A stretch of 64,000 nt of DNA from Candidatus Dormiibacterota bacterium (GTDB taxonomy: Archaea; Thermoproteota; Bathyarchaeia; 40CM-2-53-6): NCBI GenBank assembly GCA_035637535.1, contig DASPWZ010000049.1, positions 42,539 to 106,538 of the forward strand. Reading direction: 5' to 3'. A program made the position numbers and the translations under genes. A model generated the notes under the pieces. It was not told the origin of the DNA and ran no database searches. It saw only the letters and a list, made by a program, of their open reading frames with translations. Below, one piece after another: positions 5,215 through 12,376 of the stretch (positions are counted from its first letter, which is position 1; every line of letters starts with the position of its first letter).

Positions 5215-5401
5215 CCAATAGGGTAAACCCTGACCGAAAGCCATTCAGATATTGCGGCATCTAATCAAAAACAGAAATATGAGTCCCAACCTAGGACCTA
5301 ATCCCTGTCTCAATCATTGATATTCTTAGAAAAATCTGTGGATAGGATTCATCCCTTTTTTATCGAAGAGCTCACGCAATTAGACCTGGTTGCTTGATGC
5401 A

Positions 5402-5830
5402 CTAATCGCTTGATCCGAGATCAAACTTTGTCATTATCTTCAGAATGATCTTTTCTGTGTCTGCCGAACGATCAAGCGAGAGGCCAAGAGACCTTCTTGC
5501 GGATAAAGGAATTGTCACCATTTTCAACCCTTTGTGTGTGATAAGCACGGATTCTGTGCGACCAAACAACTCGTCGGTCTGTCTCGCCATCTCTGTAACA
5601 ATACTTGACCAGAACCCAATCCTCTTGCGAAGGTCAATACTCTGGCTAAGGACGTTCTTTGTCCTCGCGGTTTCTGCGCAGCCTGTAACCTCTGCCCCTT
5701 CGATAAATGCGGCGACCCTAATCGATGGATCTGACTCTATAATCTGTTTGCAGACCGTATTATCATCGCGGTTTTTCTCGGTTGAGAGATTCTCCGACTC
5801 GAAGTTCCGGCCGACATTTTGGGATGGCAA
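5402..5830 (-). CDS. Hypothetical protein (142 aa)
   Basis: ORF with protein-like composition. It overlaps a plus-strand ORF (5445..5837) of lower plausibility. No family recognised. Confidence 0.3.
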   Translation of the reverse strand: MPSQNVGRNFESENLSTEKNRDDNTVCKQIIESDPSIRVAAFIEGAEVTGCAETARTKNVLSQSIDLRKRIGFWSSIVTEMARQTDELFGRTESVLITHKGLKMVTIPLSARRSLGLSLDRSADTEKIILKIMTKFDLGSSD

Positions 5831-6026
5831 GGCCTGAGCTTCGAGGTTCTCCTCTCACTTTGTCTTTCTTGTACCTGCTTTGGATTCAAAGAGTTACGCA
5901 CTAAGGCTGAGACCTCTTCCAAGCGGCGACGCCTTTATGTCCCTAAATCTATCCTGCACCAGTAACGAGATAGTTAATCGCCACTTGAACCGCTTTTCAT
6001 TAACTCGCTAGAGCGCTGAATACTTT

Positions 6027-6371
6027 TTGGACGAGAAATGGTTGGACCCTAAATCGGATTTCTCCAGCATATTTCAAGAGTCGGTTAAGGAAGGTTTGCG
6101 CAATACTCTAGGAGAAACGGTCATGCTAACGGTTGTGCCGCTTCTCAAACAGTCGCTCCAGACCTACGCTGAGAAGCCCAGCGAGTTTCACCGAGAGCTC
6201 CAGTTCTACTTCGGATTCGGAGCCTTGACATTGGAACGGATGATAGTGAAAGAACTCTTCCAGAAGCTGAATCTTCACTACACATCGAGTAGCGAGCTCG
6301 ACTTCGAAACCTCAATCGGACTTGCGAGGAAGGATCTTTTCTTGCTTCAAAGAGGAGTCACAAGAAAATGA
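6027..6371 (+). CDS. Hypothetical small protein (114 aa), immediately upstream of a KaiC-like ATPase and probably co-transcribed with it
   Basis: ORF. About 75-nt gap to the KaiC-like gene on the same strand. Confidence 0.35.
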   Translation: MDEKWLDPKSDFSSIFQESVKEGLRNTLGETVMLTVVPLLKQSLQTYAEKPSEFHRELQFYFGFGALTLERMIVKELFQKLNLHYTSSSELDFETSIGLARKDLFLLQRGVTRK

Positions 6372-7280: not shown

Positions 7281-8135
7281 GTGCCAGCGGTACGGAATGC
7301 AAGTTTGATCTCTCCTCACACGACCAGGCGTATTGGAGTAGTTCCTGTCCCGATTTTTGTCGCGCTGATCGCAATCCTTGACATGGTACTTCCCACCAGC
7401 GTAGCGGCAAGTGTAGCCTTCAACCCACTATTGGTTTTCGCGATGCTACAGACCCTGTTCCTTTTTGGAACTGCGGTCGTGGTCGCCTACATTTCTCTGA
7501 AGAGTTATTTGTCTGGAGGTTCGCGGACCATTCTCTTGCTAGGTAGCGGGACTCTGGCATGGGGTTTCGCAAGCATGGTAGCTGGCTGGTTGCTTGGCCC
7601 TCCAGGCGGGCCGAATGTTGCTGTGACCATTAGTAACTCAGGTGCCCTGTTCGCATCACTGTTCTACAGCGCAAGCGCTACAACCACGACGCGTTCAGGT
7701 TCAACAAGAGACTCGAAGTCGCGCAAATCGAAGTTACTTCTAGCCTACGGTGGTGCAGTCGGCTTCCTCGTGGCGCTGACAGTGTTCGCGCTTCTAGGCG
7801 CGACTCCTGCCTTTTTCGTTCCAGGAGCTGGCTCTACGTTGTTGAGGCAGGTTGTTGTAGCGACGGGGCTCTTCATGTTCTCGGCGTCGTCCATCCTCTT
7901 CATGAGGCTGTATCGTGATTCAAGATCAGGGATCTTGTTCTGGTACTCGATGGCCTTAGCTTCGACGACCATAGGGCTGGCCGCGTTCTACTTCGGTAGA
8001 ACTGTTGGGGATCCAATCGCTTGGACCGGTAGGATAGCCACCTATCTCGGAGGAATATACTCCCTCATTGCAATCTGGTCCGCCAGCCGAGGCTCACACG
8101 TTAGTCCTGCCGGTCCATTCACAGCTTCGGTCTAG
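7281..8135 (+). CDS. Polytopic integral membrane protein, unknown function
   Basis: 284 aa with about 7-8 hydrophobic segments. No recognisable motifs. Confidence 0.5.
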   Translation: MPAVRNASLISPHTTRRIGVVPVPIFVALIAILDMVLPTSVAASVAFNPLLVFAMLQTLFLFGTAVVVAYISLKSYLSGGSRTILLLGSGTLAWGFASMVAGWLLGPPGGPNVAVTISNSGALFASLFYSASATTTTRSGSTRDSKSRKSKLLLAYGGAVGFLVALTVFALLGATPAFFVPGAGSTLLRQVVVATGLFMFSASSILFMRLYRDSRSGILFWYSMALASTTIGLAAFYFGRTVGDPIAWTGRIATYLGGIYSLIAIWSASRGSHVSPAGPFTASV

Positions 8136-8254
8136 GGCCCTCGTAGGTGCCCACTTACCTATTTTCATCAAGTAAATGGGTAGTCTATCGTTGCATTGGG
8201 GAAACAGGCACGAACTAATTCTCTGGATCGTTAGCTAGGAGACGCTGGTTTCAA

Positions 8255-9949
8255 TTAGTCTCGTACTGCCAGATAGCTGTCGATAAGTTGAGGCACGACT
8301 GTTCGTGCCCCAAACCAAAACTCCTTGTTTGCCTGGTCACCGGGAGCAAACAAGTGGTCAAATTTCAAGCGATCTTCCTCAGATGGCATACGTTCTAGGC
8401 ATCTCAAAGCGAACTCTCGCAATTGACGTGCACTGTCTAAGCCAGCATTCTTAGCCACGTAGTACAGTGCCAGTTTTTCCACTTCTGCGACATCGCGTCC
8501 GGTGTCGCGGCCTGCAAGCCTCAGATTTCCGAGAGTAACGAGGATCTTGTCTTCCAAAGACATCGAAGGTATCTCGTACTGGTTATTGTCTGGTATCCGA
8601 GAAATCAGGTCAGAACCTTTTGGCCGTGAAGCAATCAGCGACTTCATCTCGGCCAAGCTATCGCCAGAGCTTCCCGCAAGCACGAAGACTCTCGGGGTCA
8701 CCTTTGAGGAATCAAGGTATGGAAGCAATGTCTCGTAAGGCCATGACTTGCCAGACTTACCGTCGACTTCGTCGATAAAGAAGAGACTTGGCCTTTCCGA
8801 TTTTTCGGTAGCGGATAGGATTGAGCGAGCCTCCGATTCTTCGACTTCAGCTAAGTTCAAGTGTACATATTCGACATTGCCGCGGTTTCGTTCGAGTGAG
8901 CCTTGCATCTTTTCCGTCTTGGGCTTGGGATGAGCAAGTGTTTCGGTTACCTGTTTGACGAAGAATGTTTTGCCGCTTCCGGGACGGGCCCAAATCAGGT
9001 AGTTCTCATGTTTGGATGCGTTTGAAGATTGGAGGCCTGCCACGATTTTCTGTTTGAGATCTTTCAAAACGTTTCGAGTCTTCTCATTGTATCTCGTGTA
9101 GCTTCCTACCACACAATACTTTGACAATTCGATTTCAGAAGTACGCTCGAGAAGAGAAACTAGTTCCTTAGCTTGAGCCATGGATCGATCGTCCTCGCGA
9201 TCGACCCTTGCCAGTTCGGATACTCCGAGAAACCTTCTAGTTTCCACCAGGAACTCTTTCCACGCCTCCTCATCTTCCATGAGAATGTGGTTTCTACTGT
9301 TCAACGGAACAAAGTGAGCATCAGCGATCCTGGTCGCGAGATCCCTGCCATCCTCGAATGGCAGGACAAGATCGCCCCGGGAGTGCAAAATCAGTGTTGG
9401 CACCGTTATTCTTGGTAGCAGATCTTGGACGTTGATCTGGAGAAATTCTTTGATGAATCGCACTGCGTTCTCTGGTGAGGTAGATTTTTTCTGTAACTCA
9501 GTGAACCAGTGTCGTTCCTCGACCTTTCCATCAGGCATGAAGATTGATGTGAACAACTGTTCATACGCGGGGTTACCTGTTCCCCAGCCGACCCTCGTCA
9601 GGGTCAGCATAGCATTCAACTCTTCAAGATCCCTCATCGACGATCGCGCCTTAGCGCGACCTAGCGCGCTTGCCCCATAGAGAATCAGGTGGTTTACACG
9701 TTCAGGATGTCTTGCCGCGTAAGCTATACTTAACGCTCCACCATGAGAAAGTCCGAGTAGCGCGAATTTCTCGAGCCCAAGGCTATCAACGACCGCTTCC
9801 AGATCCTCTACCCAGTTCTCGAACGTGGAGGATGCTACTTCTCGATCGGAGAGGCCGCATCCACGATCGTCGTATCGAGTGTACGAGTGATACCTTGACA
9901 GCTCCCTACTCCAATGCCTCAAAACCGGACTGTCAAAGTCGAACTGCAA
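8255..9949 (-). CDS. Fusion protein: N-terminal alpha/beta-hydrolase domain plus C-terminal P-loop NTPase (AAA-like). The conserved hydrolase N-terminus continues in frame upstream to about 10072 without a canonical start codon.
   Basis: Hydrolase motifs: 'YDDRGCGLSD', nucleophile elbow 'GLSHGG', acid 'SRGDLVLP', His in 'NSRNHILMED'. ATPase motifs: Walker A 'ARPGSGKTF', Walker B 'LFFIDEVDG', sensor-like 'VFVLAGSS'. The upstream in-frame segment 'IAYSTIGSGPPLVKAATWLGH' matches the hydrolase beta1-beta2 region. Confidence 0.7.
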   Translation of the reverse strand: MQFDFDSPVLRHWSRELSRYHSYTRYDDRGCGLSDREVASSTFENWVEDLEAVVDSLGLEKFALLGLSHGGALSIAYAARHPERVNHLILYGASALGRAKARSSMRDLEELNAMLTLTRVGWGTGNPAYEQLFTSIFMPDGKVEERHWFTELQKKSTSPENAVRFIKEFLQINVQDLLPRITVPTLILHSRGDLVLPFEDGRDLATRIADAHFVPLNSRNHILMEDEEAWKEFLVETRRFLGVSELARVDREDDRSMAQAKELVSLLERTSEIELSKYCVVGSYTRYNEKTRNVLKDLKQKIVAGLQSSNASKHENYLIWARPGSGKTFFVKQVTETLAHPKPKTEKMQGSLERNRGNVEYVHLNLAEVEESEARSILSATEKSERPSLFFIDEVDGKSGKSWPYETLLPYLDSSKVTPRVFVLAGSSGDSLAEMKSLIASRPKGSDLISRIPDNNQYEIPSMSLEDKILVTLGNLRLAGRDTGRDVAEVEKLALYYVAKNAGLDSARQLREFALRCLERMPSEEDRLKFDHLFAPGDQANKEFWFGARTVVPQLIDSYLAVRD

Positions 9950-10330
9950 ATGGCCAAGCCAAGTAGCTGCCTTTACCAGCGGAGGACCAGAACCTATGGT
10001 TGAGTACGCAATCCGCGTTCCATCCCTAGAAGTGCAAAATCTGATCCGCTGTTCCAGGACGAACCCTCTCTTGCCAGCAGCAAGTCAGTGCGAAAGCGTG
10101 CTTAAGGCTAGCGGAAAATCCCAGGGTTTTCCATCCGGAAAATTTGTCTGTAATCACTTCTGGTGACTATTCAACGTGCACGGCCGTTATAAGCCGCGAC
10201 GAGACATAGAGCGATCGACGAGAAATGTGTCACGTCAAAATAGACCAAGAGAGAATAGAACAAGCGACCATCAAGAATTGGCTTACAACAAACAACCTAA
10301 GACTGACTACTCGATAGGGGCCTCCAGACG

Positions 10331-11557
10331 ATGGGCGATGTCTCCGTAGACAGAGGCGCGACAGCCAAACTCGGCCAGGTCGAGGGCGACCTAAGAGTCG
10401 GCCAGGCAGCAAGAATAGAACCAGAAGACAAGGTAATCCATGTAACCGGACGAGTATCCTGTGACGGAGACGCCGAGTTCCATGGAAGTCTATCATGCTC
10501 AGAGTTCTCCGCTCGCCACGGGAAAATCAGAATCGAGGGCGATCTTATCGCCAAAAGCGAGGTAAAGGTCGATGACGGACAGCTAGCGATCGATGGGTCC
10601 CTCGAGGCGGCCACGGTTACTGTCGACAAAGCCTTGAGGATAGGCGGAAACGCTCGGGCCGACGATTTTGATGTAGGAGGTGTCCTTGAGGTTAGAGGAA
10701 CCATCTCCGGAAAGAAAGTGGACGTAGGCGGCTCGTTCAAAGTTCAAGGAACCGCCGAAGTCGAAGAGGTTGATGTCGGAGGCACCGTCGACATAGCCAG
10801 CATTGTCAAGTTTGCAAAGCTCGATGTTGGAGGCATGGCCCGGATCGGTGGAGGAGAGGTCTCCAAGGACGTGGATGTCGGCGGCAAGTTCGAATCGACA
10901 AAGCCGCTAAAATTCTCGAAGATCGACGTAGGAGGTCTAGCAACACTAGTGGAAGGCGGCGAAGGCGGAGATGTTGATGTGGGTGGAAAATTCGAGAGCA
11001 GAGCCGACCTCTCGTTCAACTCTCTAGACGTTGGAGGCATGGCGTCGATAGAGGGGAACGGAAAAGGGGTTGAGGTGGACGTTGGAGGACTCTTGCGAGT
11101 ATCCGGAAGCCTCACGCTGGAAAAGGACCTGGACATTGGAGGCAGAGCATACATCGGCGCAGAACTCAGACTCGACTCTCTGGAGGTCGGCGGCTCCATG
11201 GAGGCGGACCTGATTATCGCCCAGAAAAGTATCGAGGTGGGAGGAGACCTCAAGACCATCAAGGGAACAAAAGGAGACACTGTCGAGCTAGGACATGGAT
11301 CACGGGCGAGCGGACCCATTGTCGCACGAGAAGTGAGCGTCGGACACGGTGGCAGAGTCGAGGACGTCTACGCGGACACGTTAGAAATGGAACACGGGTC
11401 AAGAGCGCGGAACCTCTATTTCAGAGAAGGCGTCATTGAAGCAGGCGTCAACGTCGAGGGCGAGGTCCTTTACACAGACACGATCGAAGCCTCACCCGAC
11501 GTAAGATTCGCAAAACCCTCCGCCAAGGTCAACGAGCTACCTAAACCGCCCCTCTGA
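10331..11557 (+). CDS. Bactofilin-like / polymer-forming cytoskeletal-type beta-helix repeat protein with 12 'DVGG' repeats
   Basis: 408 aa with about 12 repeats of an 18-20 aa unit centred on (V/L/I)D(V/I)GG. This resembles bactofilin (DUF583 / CcmA) beta-helix rungs. Confidence 0.6.
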   Translation: MGDVSVDRGATAKLGQVEGDLRVGQAARIEPEDKVIHVTGRVSCDGDAEFHGSLSCSEFSARHGKIRIEGDLIAKSEVKVDDGQLAIDGSLEAATVTVDKALRIGGNARADDFDVGGVLEVRGTISGKKVDVGGSFKVQGTAEVEEVDVGGTVDIASIVKFAKLDVGGMARIGGGEVSKDVDVGGKFESTKPLKFSKIDVGGLATLVEGGEGGDVDVGGKFESRADLSFNSLDVGGMASIEGNGKGVEVDVGGLLRVSGSLTLEKDLDIGGRAYIGAELRLDSLEVGGSMEADLIIAQKSIEVGGDLKTIKGTKGDTVELGHGSRASGPIVAREVSVGHGGRVEDVYADTLEMEHGSRARNLYFREGVIEAGVNVEGEVLYTDTIEASPDVRFAKPSAKVNELPKPPL

Positions 11558-11561
11558 GAAA

Positions 11562-11855
11562 TTGCAGCCCGCCAAACGGTCTCGGATGGACATTTACGCA
11601 GAGATATTAGAAGCTCTGAAACGAAAGGGAGTGACCCGGATAACAAGAGTCTCCTACGCTGTTGGATTACCTGTCGACCGGACAAAAAACTACCTCAAGG
11701 ATCTATCTTCATCAGGGCTCGTTGGCATGCAGACGGGCGAAGACTCCGGTTATTCGATAACACATAGAGGATTAGAATTTCTCGACGCTTACTGGAAGCT
11801 GAAAGGATTCCTAGACTTCATTGGCGGAGAATCTGGCGAGCCGGGCCGCGGCTAA
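11562..11855 (+). CDS. Small winged-helix (wHTH) DNA-binding protein; the start may be the internal Met at about 11586
   Basis: 'MDIYAEILEALKRKGVTRITRVSYAVGLPVDRTKNYLKDLSSSGLV' has an HTH plus wing pattern. It lies 5 nt downstream of the repeat protein. Confidence 0.5.
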   Translation: MQPAKRSRMDIYAEILEALKRKGVTRITRVSYAVGLPVDRTKNYLKDLSSSGLVGMQTGEDSGYSITHRGLEFLDAYWKLKGFLDFIGGESGEPGRG

Positions 11856-12376
11856 GCCACGTAGCTCTTGTATTCTCCCTCAAACTCGCGGACTATCTCG
11901 AACTTGGGAAGTCTCCGAGAGCGAAGCTCTCCGTGGTGTTGGAAAGTGAGTTCTGGAAACATGACCGCTGGCCCATCTATAGCCAGCTTTGTAGCTGGGT
12001 GGTCGGGTCCTAGGACCCGGGCGCATATCTGACGGGTCAACCTTCGCACCTCACCCTCATCAACGTATCCCAGCGTATGCAGGTATTCGTGGAGAAGAGT
12101 GTAGAAGACGTAGGCGTTGAGGGTCTGTCGATCTTTCGCTATGTGTGTGACCTGGTCTAGCAGGCTTCTGTTCATGACGATGAAATTGGAGCCCATCTGG
12201 TGGAAAGCGCCGATGTATTCCGGCAGATCAGCAAGACCCAGCATCAACCCTGTTCGTCTCTTTCCCAGACTACTCTTGACCGATTTCTTTACAAGCTGAA
12301 AGACTTCTGAGAAGTTGAAGCTCCGGTCCAGTCCCTCCGATACACCTATGCTGGTCGGGGGTATGTCAACGTCCAA
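11852..12376 (-). CDS. Putative small zinc metallopeptidase (HExxHxxG motif; archaemetzincin-like size)
   Basis: 174 aa with 'LLHEYLHTLGYVDEGE', i.e. HExxHxxGxxD/E. The Cys-rich tail of bona fide archaemetzincins is absent. Confidence 0.45.
   Translation of the reverse strand: MDVDIPPTSIGVSEGLDRSFNFSEVFQLVKKSVKSSLGKRRTGLMLGLADLPEYIGAFHQMGSNFIVMNRSLLDQVTHIAKDRQTLNAYVFYTLLHEYLHTLGYVDEGEVRRLTRQICARVLGPDHPATKLAIDGPAVMFPELTFQHHGELRSRRLPKFEIVREFEGEYKSYVA

Follow-up and report, generated by a model that had tools for sequence, protein, structure and literature searches.

Why would an archaeon encode a long, acidic repeat protein of the bactofilin type directly in front of a small DNA-binding protein, and what might the two proteins do for each other? 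The question is raised by a stretch of 64,000 nucleotides (nt) on contig DASPWZ010000049.1 (positions 42,539 to 106,538, forward strand) of assembly GCA_035637535.1, deposited as Candidatus Dormiibacterota bacterium and placed by GTDB in the Bathyarchaeia (Archaea; Thermoproteota). This whole stretch is referred to below as the window. Two genes on its forward strand are considered. The first, at 10331-11557, encodes a protein of 408 amino acids (aa), called here the rod, and the second, at 11562-11855, encodes a basic winged helix-turn-helix (wHTH) protein of 97 aa, called here the partner. Together with the control region in front of them they occupy positions 10145-11855, which we read, with a probability of about 0.55, as a self-contained two-gene operon forming an autoregulated module of a scaffold and its regulator.

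The rod gene is defined by its Pfam match, its homologues, an AlphaFold2 model and profile alignment (hhalign). Its product contains exactly 12 copies of the motif [DE][VI]GG within residues 114-305, of which 11 spacings are 17 residues long and one is 18. The regular array of twelve 17-residue rungs with the (D/E)(V/I)GG motif covers residues 114-318 (10670-11284, plus strand), and the degenerate copies LGHG, VGHG and MEHG follow it in phase. When the same register is extended over the whole chain, about 22-23 rungs are obtained, 12 of which bear the exact motif. An earlier note on this DNA, written by a model from the sequence, had described a 408-aa protein with twelve 'DVGG'-type motifs, and the count bears this out. 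Its repeat length of 18-20 residues has to be replaced by the measured period of 17, and its count of twelve applies to the exact motif, the rungs of the whole protein numbering about 22-23.

The repetition exists at the protein level only. Tandem Repeats Finder (TRF) reported no tandem repeat in the DNA of the rod gene, and the codon usage differs among the 12 repeat units, which argues that the rungs are old and maintained by selection on the protein rather than the result of recent duplication or chance. On the opposite strand, two open reading frames (ORFs; 10297-10740 and 10744-11319, together spanning 10297-11319) carry 'PPTS' repeats, with 11 copies in one frame. Both arise from reading the DVGG codons in reverse complement and are spurious, as the same note had already stated. 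The forward frame is taken as the real gene because it has 143 homologues, a Pfam match and an AlphaFold2 model with a mean predicted local distance difference test (pLDDT) score of 96.3. The protein has a mass of 42 kDa, an isoelectric point (pI) of 4.7 (family median 5.0) and high contents of glycine (16%) and valine (12%). Its N-terminus reads MGDVSVDRGATAKLG, the family consensus there being MxxxxVxxGxTxxLG, and the first strand starts from residue 4. At the other end, conservation and hhalign delimit the C-terminal rungs and a conserved tail (residues 325-408; 11303-11554, plus strand), in which Y381 and K399 hardly vary. The rod has no signal peptide or membrane segment, its longest hydrophobic run being 4 residues, and is therefore probably cytoplasmic.

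The family to which the rod belongs is indicated first by profile searches. Its top Pfam match is PF04519 (Bactofilin), for which it scores 33.3 bits (E 5.8e-8; gathering score 27.9), and the same family is matched by 38 of 39 diverse members of the rod family (best E 2.8e-16). PF04519 is also the sole Pfam family matched when residues 1-110, 100-215 and 200-320 are scanned separately, with 19.9, 13.7 and 21.0 bits, respectively. Weak matches to FapA, LbH_EIF2B, DUF5649 and pAdhesive_15 occur in 7-10 of the 39 members, while hexapeptide and pentapeptide families are found neither for the rod nor among the top 11 families of these members. Alignment of the rod profile to a BacA-type profile by hhalign gave a probability of 80.4% (E 1.3e-5) and placed residues 325-408 on the C-terminal half of the BacA domain. 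The BacA-type profile is shallow (five sequences), as the homologue search with the BacA fragment returned six close relatives only. The rod-family profile recovers the PDB sequence 2n3d_A at E 0.053. These profile comparisons favour homology with a canonical bactofilin but do not prove it. A single-sequence search of the PDB with the rod protein gave nothing useful.

The second line of evidence is the fold. As described for BacA and TtBac (10.1101/617639), the bactofilin domain winds as a triangle with about 17 residues per turn, encloses a hydrophobic core and places glycines at its corners. In a profile of 264 rungs of the rod family, position 1 is Asp or Glu in 81%, position 2 is Val in 93% and positions 3-4 are Gly-Gly; positions 6 and 8 are hydrophobic and position 10 is Gly in 58%; positions 12 and 14 are hydrophobic or small, and position 17 is Ile, Val or Leu in 94%. 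Each 17 residues of the rod contain three sides of the type hydrophobic-x-hydrophobic (positions 17/2, 6/8 and 12/14) and three glycine-rich corners. Judged by this residue pattern, the period and the rung profile fit the published bactofilin winding. The AlphaFold2 model of the full rod, computed from a 39-sequence alignment, reaches, besides the mean pLDDT given above, a predicted template modelling (pTM) score of 0.87 and is all-beta from residue 4 to about 399. No disordered segment appears in it, pLDDT being at least 88 in every 10-residue block and nowhere below 50. A 7-rung fragment was modelled with a pLDDT of 91.4, and in both models the DSSP pattern per rung is E8-2-E4-3. The rod is thus predicted to fold into a single unbroken beta-helix with about 22 rungs, each of 17 residues. 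As the acidic position 1 lies between two inward-facing hydrophobic residues, it should face outwards and form an acidic ladder along one face of the helix.

The earlier note had read the protein as bactofilin-like, had named a Pfam search and an AlphaFold model as the ways to check this, and had regarded assignment to an unrelated beta-helix family, such as hexapeptide or pentapeptide repeats, as the finding that would speak against it. The searches place PF04519 first and above its gathering score, the model is confidently all-beta at the level of secondary structure, and the hexapeptide and pentapeptide families remain unmatched, so that the reading is supported at the level of the superfamily. 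By sequence, the rod is best placed in the bactofilin superfamily (PF04519) as an extra-long and divergent member; it is not a canonical bactofilin.

The 143 homologues of the rod, found by a word-indexed search, are mostly 380-450 aa long. Their source names comprise Bathyarchaeia, Nitrososphaerales, Promethearchaeota/Asgardarchaeia and Thermoplasmata, and a locus in a soil Candidatus Bathyarchaeia metagenome-assembled genome encodes a protein 98% identical to that of the window. They are annotated as 'hypothetical' by NCBI and as 'cytoskeletal protein CcmA (bactofilin family)' or 'predicted acyltransferase (DUF342 family)' by JGI. When 1.84 billion cluster representatives were searched exhaustively with the family profile, 196 matched at E <= 1e-30, 1,736 at <= 1e-10 and 5,122 at <= 1e-3. 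Some proteins of a much larger size are reached by this profile: giants of 2,100-4,500 aa (P0198, P0221, P0232, P0238, P0241, P0243, P0246, P0249, P0253 and P0256) match it at 1e-38 to 1e-59 in 7-23 separate stretches. One further protein, P0015 (433 aa), appears to fuse the rod, up to about residue 345, in frame to the wHTH protein, with about 60 C-terminal rod residues missing. The two parts meet at a shared EDxYAE microhomology, which together with the missing end of the rod points to a deletion or an assembly chimera rather than a natural fusion.

The partner gene (11562-11855, plus strand) follows the rod gene closely. After the rod stop codon TGA (11555-11557) come GAAA and the TTG start of the partner at 11562, which gives a gap of 4 nt, one less than the 5 nt stated earlier. 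The upstream TTG is favoured over the internal ATG at 11586 because the homologues keep a basic K/R-R-x-R segment before the DIYA motif. The gene is defined by its match to PF14947, by profile comparison with the PDB and by its conserved adjacency to the rod gene. Residues 5-81 of the protein match PF14947 (HTH_45) with 58.9 bits against a cut-off of 25.5 (E 5e-16), in agreement with the earlier description of a small wHTH gene just 3' of the rod gene. The match to the NCBIfam model NF053610 (Sso10a_fam) reaches 54.5 bits, below the cut-off of 60 bits. A profile built from seven partners finds Sso10a-2 (4hw0) at E 6.5e-10, Sso10a (1r7j) at E 9.5e-6 and AspA (5k5o) at E 1.4e-3. The partner has a pI of 9.3, and most partners in the family have a pI above 9. 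The invariant residues are located in a PxDR segment, in the predicted recognition helix and in a Y-x2-T-x-R wing. Clear homology in sequence marks the partner as a relative of Sso10a outside the narrow NF053610 subfamily.

The known relatives Sso10a, Sso10a-2 (1R7J, 4HW0) and AspA (5K5O) resemble the partner in size (about 95-105 aa), in their basic character and in a winged helix of the HTH_45 type that leads into a C-terminal helix, in those proteins the dimerisation helix. Unlike them, the partner belongs to an orthologous group of its own, which is characterised by invariant PxDR and Y-x2-T-x-R motifs and is linked to both the rod gene and a particular palindrome. This group, the linkage and the palindrome suggest that the partner is a dedicated local regulator and not a general chromatin protein.

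The two genes are kept together over large evolutionary distances. The earlier note had named the lack of any conserved partner gene as grounds for rejecting its view; the phyletic check covered 14 independent loci (Bathyarchaeia, Asgard, Thermoplasmata and others) and finds the wHTH partner in 13 of them, directly adjacent in 12, and the flanking genes are unrelated and different in every lineage. The partner lies downstream of the rod gene in the bathyarchaeial window itself, in the Thermoplasmata locus L008 (22-nt gap), in the Asgard locus L011 (2-nt gap) and in loci L016, L018, L019 and L020 (rod homologues P0113, P0052, P0105 and P0079, respectively). In L017 (P0096) it is located upstream on the same strand. 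A hidden Markov model (HMM) specific for the partner finds exactly one ORF per locus, always at the position of the pair, in 250 kb that include the whole window. The reciprocal test, which started from three partner homologues, found a rod-family gene directly upstream in all three (rod-family HMM E <= 1e-153). Within a soil population the pair is kept in 62 of the 64 loci with enough sequence; this metagenome scan recovered only close relatives of 82-99% identity and so gives depth within a population and not breadth. A third conserved neighbour, either a UbiE-type methyltransferase gene or a zincin-like gene of 174 aa, was considered and rejected, as its synteny is restricted to the close relatives L001-L007.

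In two loci the partner carries an additional domain. In L013 (rod homologue P0089), the downstream partner at 5225-6031, beside the rod gene, consists of HTH_45 fused to the catalytic domain of an adenylate/guanylate cyclase. In the Bathyarchaeota locus L009, a protein encoded at 1659-2984, two genes away from the rod gene, combines HTH_45 with a KaiC-like ATPase. Such fusions hint at signalling inputs into the module.

The region upstream of the rod gene, on which the earlier note made no remark, offers candidate operators. The non-coding block at 10145-10330 (plus strand), comprising the promoter, candidate operators and leader, has a mean column identity of 84% in 7 relatives, and these 190 nt before the rod ATG are conserved although the sequence further upstream has diverged. 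Within it, the palindrome TCAC-TTCTG-GTGA (10154-10166) is a candidate distal operator, marked by its recurrence in distant loci. A second, perfect palindrome, CGTGCACG (10175-10182), is invariant in the 7 relatives and holds the proximal GTGCA half-site at 10176-10180, 6 nt before the TATA-like box. It ends 4 nt before TTATAA (10187-10192, plus strand), a putative archaeal TATA box that is nearly invariant in the same relatives, and it is present in 55 of 61 soil-population loci. From the position of this box we infer that transcription starts near 10215-10220. The near-invariant element GACGAGAAATGTGTCACGTC (10217-10236, plus strand), located at this predicted start or immediately behind it, contains a further half-site of the AAATGTG type; AAATGTGTCA, at about 10223-10232, is present in 56 of the 61 soil-population loci. 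Two other explanations of the block were examined and rejected. A riboswitch or small RNA has no Rfam match, and the consensus fold reaches only -5 kcal/mol with no real covariation; a small ORF is contradicted by stops in every frame in some relatives and by the lack of a conserved reading frame. A scan for bacterial-type promoters and terminators was uninformative for this archaeal DNA.

The distal palindrome recurs far beyond the window. Among 11 independent loci drawn from several phyla, 6 have an exact TCAC-N5-GTGA in the 200 nt that precede the rod gene, whereas a chance rate of 1.06 per 64 kb predicts about 0.04 such sites in 11 x 200 nt. Its positions relative to the rod start are -177 in the window, -49 in L008, -89 in L009, -52 in L016, -51 in L019 and -96 in L017, where it stands between both genes. 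Variants with one mismatch or of the GCAC/GTGC type are found in L013, L018, L015 and L011. In this upstream interval the palindrome is about 52 times as dense as in the remaining sequence of the loci. In L021-L023, which were examined after the pattern had been set, one-mismatch palindromes occupy the same promoter position, and in most distant loci a GTG(A/C)N half-site, read by eye, is located 5-7 nt upstream of the TATA-like box. The Promethearchaeota locus L015 has a perfect GTCAC-ATTTT-GTGAC 60 nt before the co-directional gene that precedes the rod gene, though it lacks an adjacent partner. Outside the interval directly in front of the rod gene, exact copies occur in L015 (3272-3284 and 850-862, with a TrmO_N-domain gene) and in L016 (2040-2052, with ABC-transporter genes), in both loci upstream of co-directional genes preceding the rod gene. 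In some lineages the regulon or operon may therefore reach beyond the pair. The second exact palindrome of the window (34494) was rejected as an operator, because its position is within a gene and chance suffices to explain it.

The reading that we favour joins these elements into a feedback circuit. The partner would bind TCAC-N5-GTGA or its half-sites as a dimer and autoregulate the operon. The rod would serve as a structural scaffold that self-associates via the ends of its beta-helix as bactofilins do; such end-to-end association is suggested because the C-terminal end of the rod resembles the C-terminal half of BacA. By binding the partner, the rod would allow the amount or the assembly state of the scaffold to feed back on transcription. 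In this circuit we infer three steps: polymerisation of the rod, its contact with the partner, and the binding of the partner to the operator. The best functional analogy is provided by the yhbDEF operon of Bacillus subtilis, where a bactofilin-type gene likewise stands beside the gene of a small dimeric DNA-binding regulator. There, BacR is encoded with bacE and bacF, binds DNA and regulates its own operon, and BacE and BacF bind BacR and lower its DNA binding (PMC13649987). By this analogy, the feedback logic of the archaeal module most likely resembles that of BacE/BacF-BacR. The parts differ, however: BacR is a DUF4004 protein not homologous to HTH_45, the regulator gene comes first, and BacE and BacF have about 13 windings and are membrane-associated.

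Several observations weigh against this reading. First, they concern the assignment of the rod. The PF04519 score of the whole protein sums three stretches, each of which is below the threshold, and the comparison of the windings covers sequence and secondary structure, not coordinates. Searches with Foldseek returned no PDB structure with E < 0.2 for the full rod model and no significant match for the 7-rung fragment, for which TtBac (6RIA) gave a TMt of 0.49, a root-mean-square deviation of 6.9 Å and E 2.0, and BacA (2N3D) E 1.9. The best geometric fit of this fragment in the PDB is the right-handed autotransporter helix 8axg (TMq 0.57). The giants P0232 and P0243 match PF04519 with about 124 bits, and because such giant repeat proteins match too, the match denotes a rung of the bactofilin type and not a filament function. 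The rod is also devoid of disordered N- and C-terminal tails and of an N-terminal membrane-targeting motif with its hydrophobic doublet. Second, they concern the module: no adjacent partner is found in L015 and no palindrome upstream of the rod gene in L020. Third, the palindrome pattern was set after the sequences had been seen, although the excess survives correction for about 3,300 alternative palindromes of the 4+4 type.

A different role for the same two proteins would be sequestration without polymerisation. The acidic Asp/Glu ladder on a rod of about 10 nm could mimic the DNA backbone and titrate the basic partner off its operator, so that the rod would be a decoy. MfpA and Qnr are pentapeptide-repeat proteins that mimic DNA, and the decoy rod would act in the same manner on a different fold. 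The acidic residue at rung position 1, found in 81% of the 264 rungs and expected to face outwards, the opposed charges of rod (pI 4.7) and most partners (pI above 9), and the strictly conserved, tightly coupled gene pair all agree with such a role, as does the absence of disordered tails and of a membrane-targeting motif. The model is ordered to both ends, and short beta-bridges in the conserved C-terminal tail could cap the helix. The lowering of BacR DNA binding by BacE and BacF (PMC13649987) offers a precedent for the titration step. On the other hand, the C-terminal end aligns with the polymer-interface half of BacA, which suggests an open, stackable end, and acidic surfaces are common among soluble archaeal proteins. 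The decoy also presupposes the same conjectural contact with the partner, and since sequestration and polymerisation are compatible, it overlaps with the scaffold reading. We consider the decoy role unlikely.

The pair may instead anchor DNA or organise the chromosome, with the rod as the scaffold and the partner as an adaptor or chromatin protein, similar to Sso10a or AspA, that tethers DNA sites to it. Here the relatives of the partner are suggestive: its profile matches Sso10a-2 (6.5e-10), Sso10a (9.5e-6) and AspA (1.4e-3), the centromere-binding protein of the archaeal plasmid pNOB8. Bactofilins support chromosome segregation in Myxococcus xanthus (10.1101/617639), and the module is kept in phyla with otherwise different gene contexts. 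The arrangement of the sites speaks for a local regulator: the palindromes lie at the promoter of the operon itself, beside a TATA-like box, and do not form a centromere array, while elsewhere in the loci only one or two extra sites are found and the second site of the window is inside a gene. Furthermore, no linked ParA-type ATPase was found, and the fusions to a cyclase in L013 and to a KaiC-like ATPase in L009 look like signalling or regulatory use. Anchoring as the function of the pair is, on this balance, improbable.

Two further explanations were considered and are disfavoured. In the first, the rod would belong to another class of beta-helix, either the left-handed hexapeptide acyltransferases or DUF342/FapA (PF03961), itself a beta-solenoid. 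The JGI name 'predicted acyltransferase (DUF342 family)' on some homologues points in this direction, as do the weak matches to FapA and to LbH_EIF2B (7 of 39 members each) and a weak match of the family profile to the left-handed beta-helix (LbH) region of eIF2B-epsilon (residues 316-378, E 0.14). The rod of the window, in contrast, matches neither FapA (PF03961) nor any hexapeptide family, has neither the N-terminal region nor the flagellar context of FapA, and is a beta-helix end to end with no catalytic or nucleotide-binding domain. Its period is 17, against 18 for a turn of three [LIV]-G-x4 hexapeptides and 20 for the quadrilateral turn of pentapeptide repeats, and Bactofilin is the consistent match in 38 of 39 members, which makes this explanation very improbable. 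A secreted or viral fibre or adhesin on a beta-helix is hardly credible: Foldseek hits long fibre and tail proteins among viral models (E about 4e-9), the family profile matches the 'putative tail fiber protein' 9cuy_g (1.4e-8) and the giants share the rung type, but the viral matches have TM-scores of 0.2-0.5 only, the 9cuy match is compositionally biased, and the rod has no signal peptide, membrane segment, PHROG or PADLOC family and is encoded on a chromosome beside a DNA-binding partner and housekeeping neighbours that differ per lineage.

Two other relationships were considered and set aside. An origin from a defence system or a phage has no PADLOC or PHROG family of the rod to rest on, and the partner has only weak generic wHTH matches there. 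The calcium-responsive fibrils of AbpX are not related to the rod, as AbpX has a jelly-roll fold of the TasA type and forms its polymers through donor-strand exchange.

Within the bactofilin superfamily, the rod can be compared with the described proteins. A canonical bactofilin (10.1101/617639) consists of one domain of 6 windings, about 3 nm long, between disordered tails, and carries near its N-terminus a membrane-targeting motif in which a hydrophobic doublet precedes a basic residue. The canonical proteins of known structure (Caulobacter crescentus BacA, 2N3D; Thermus thermophilus TtBac, 6RIA) share with the rod PF04519, the glycine-cornered windings of about 17 residues with inward-facing hydrophobic pairs on three sides, and a high content of glycine and valine. 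The rod, by contrast, has about 22 rungs in one chain in place of 6 and a conserved DVGG corner that would give the acidic ladder. Its superposition on these structures is not significant, and filament formation by the rod is a conjecture.

The earlier note had also called bactofilins barely characterised in archaea, which is partly outdated, since a study of 2024 characterised two halofilins of Haloferax, HalA and HalB (PMC11459167). These proteins of Haloferax volcanii are, like the rod, archaeal members of the superfamily found via PF04519 whose architecture is not the canonical single domain of 6 windings. HalA consists of two 6-winding subdomains arranged head-to-head via an alpha-helical hairpin, and HalB is membrane-anchored (PMC11459167). 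The rod differs from both in being single and uninterrupted, with about 22 rungs and neither helices nor membrane segments. It also occurs in other lineages (Bathyarchaeia, Asgard, Thermoplasmata and Nitrososphaerales), and no wHTH partner is reported for the halofilins. A cluster with 13 windings, comprising BacE/F and a Methanobacterium protein, is mentioned in the same work (PMC11459167) and is much shorter than the rod.

The genes around the pair were also inspected. Divergently from the rod gene, positions 8255-9949 (minus strand) encode a protein of 564 aa with an N-terminal alpha/beta-hydrolase and a C-terminal AAA-type ATPase domain (Pfam), which also has a weak PADLOC match to a 'TAP-like protein' model. 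Downstream, a gene at 11852-12376 (minus strand) shares 4 nt with the end of the wHTH gene, which runs the other way. Its product of 174 aa has a weak zincin-like Pfam match only (E 0.017) and is unusually conserved, being 88-99% identical where the rod is 76-98%. In the close relative L003, about 1.2 kb of extra sequence (around 7510-8706, estimated from tblastn coordinates) separates the wHTH and zincin-like genes in comparison with the window and L001. Further upstream, at 7281-8135 (plus strand), a membrane protein of 284 aa carries a MASE3 sensor domain (33.0 bits, cut-off 31) with no attached output domain. No tRNA gene and no Rfam family at the gathering threshold were found anywhere in the 64-kb window.

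Part of this picture was known before. Archaeal matches to PF04519 have been counted (10.1101/617639), the halofilins have been characterised (PMC11459167), and homologues of the rod carry the label 'CcmA/bactofilin' from annotation pipelines. A full-text literature search found no description of a single chain of about 22 rungs, of the conserved wHTH partner or of the common operator.

Bactofilins are widespread but poorly understood, and in archaea they have been studied only as the halofilins of Haloferax. According to the predicted model, rungs of the bactofilin type can be stacked into a single rod with about four times the length of the canonical domain and without the typical tails or membrane anchor, and the same 17-residue rung also builds giant repeat proteins. 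Annotations as 'CcmA/bactofilin' thereby span architectures that may not all form filaments. The rod is tied, across phyla that include Asgard, to a dedicated DNA-binding partner and a common promoter palindrome, which raises three hypotheses: autoregulation, sequestration of the regulator by the scaffold, and DNA anchoring. A bolder proposal, doubtful though not far-fetched, is that the pair forms a pan-archaeal module (Asgard, Bathyarchaeia, Thermoplasmata, Nitrososphaerales) coupling the cytoskeleton to DNA, in which a giant rod polymer with an acidic ladder would directly bind an Sso10a-like protein, so that assembly would control expression or the positioning of chromosomal sites. If this is true, bactofilins would function here in a way not described before, and the archaeal cytoskeleton would gain a new element, one that the closest relatives of eukaryotes also possess.

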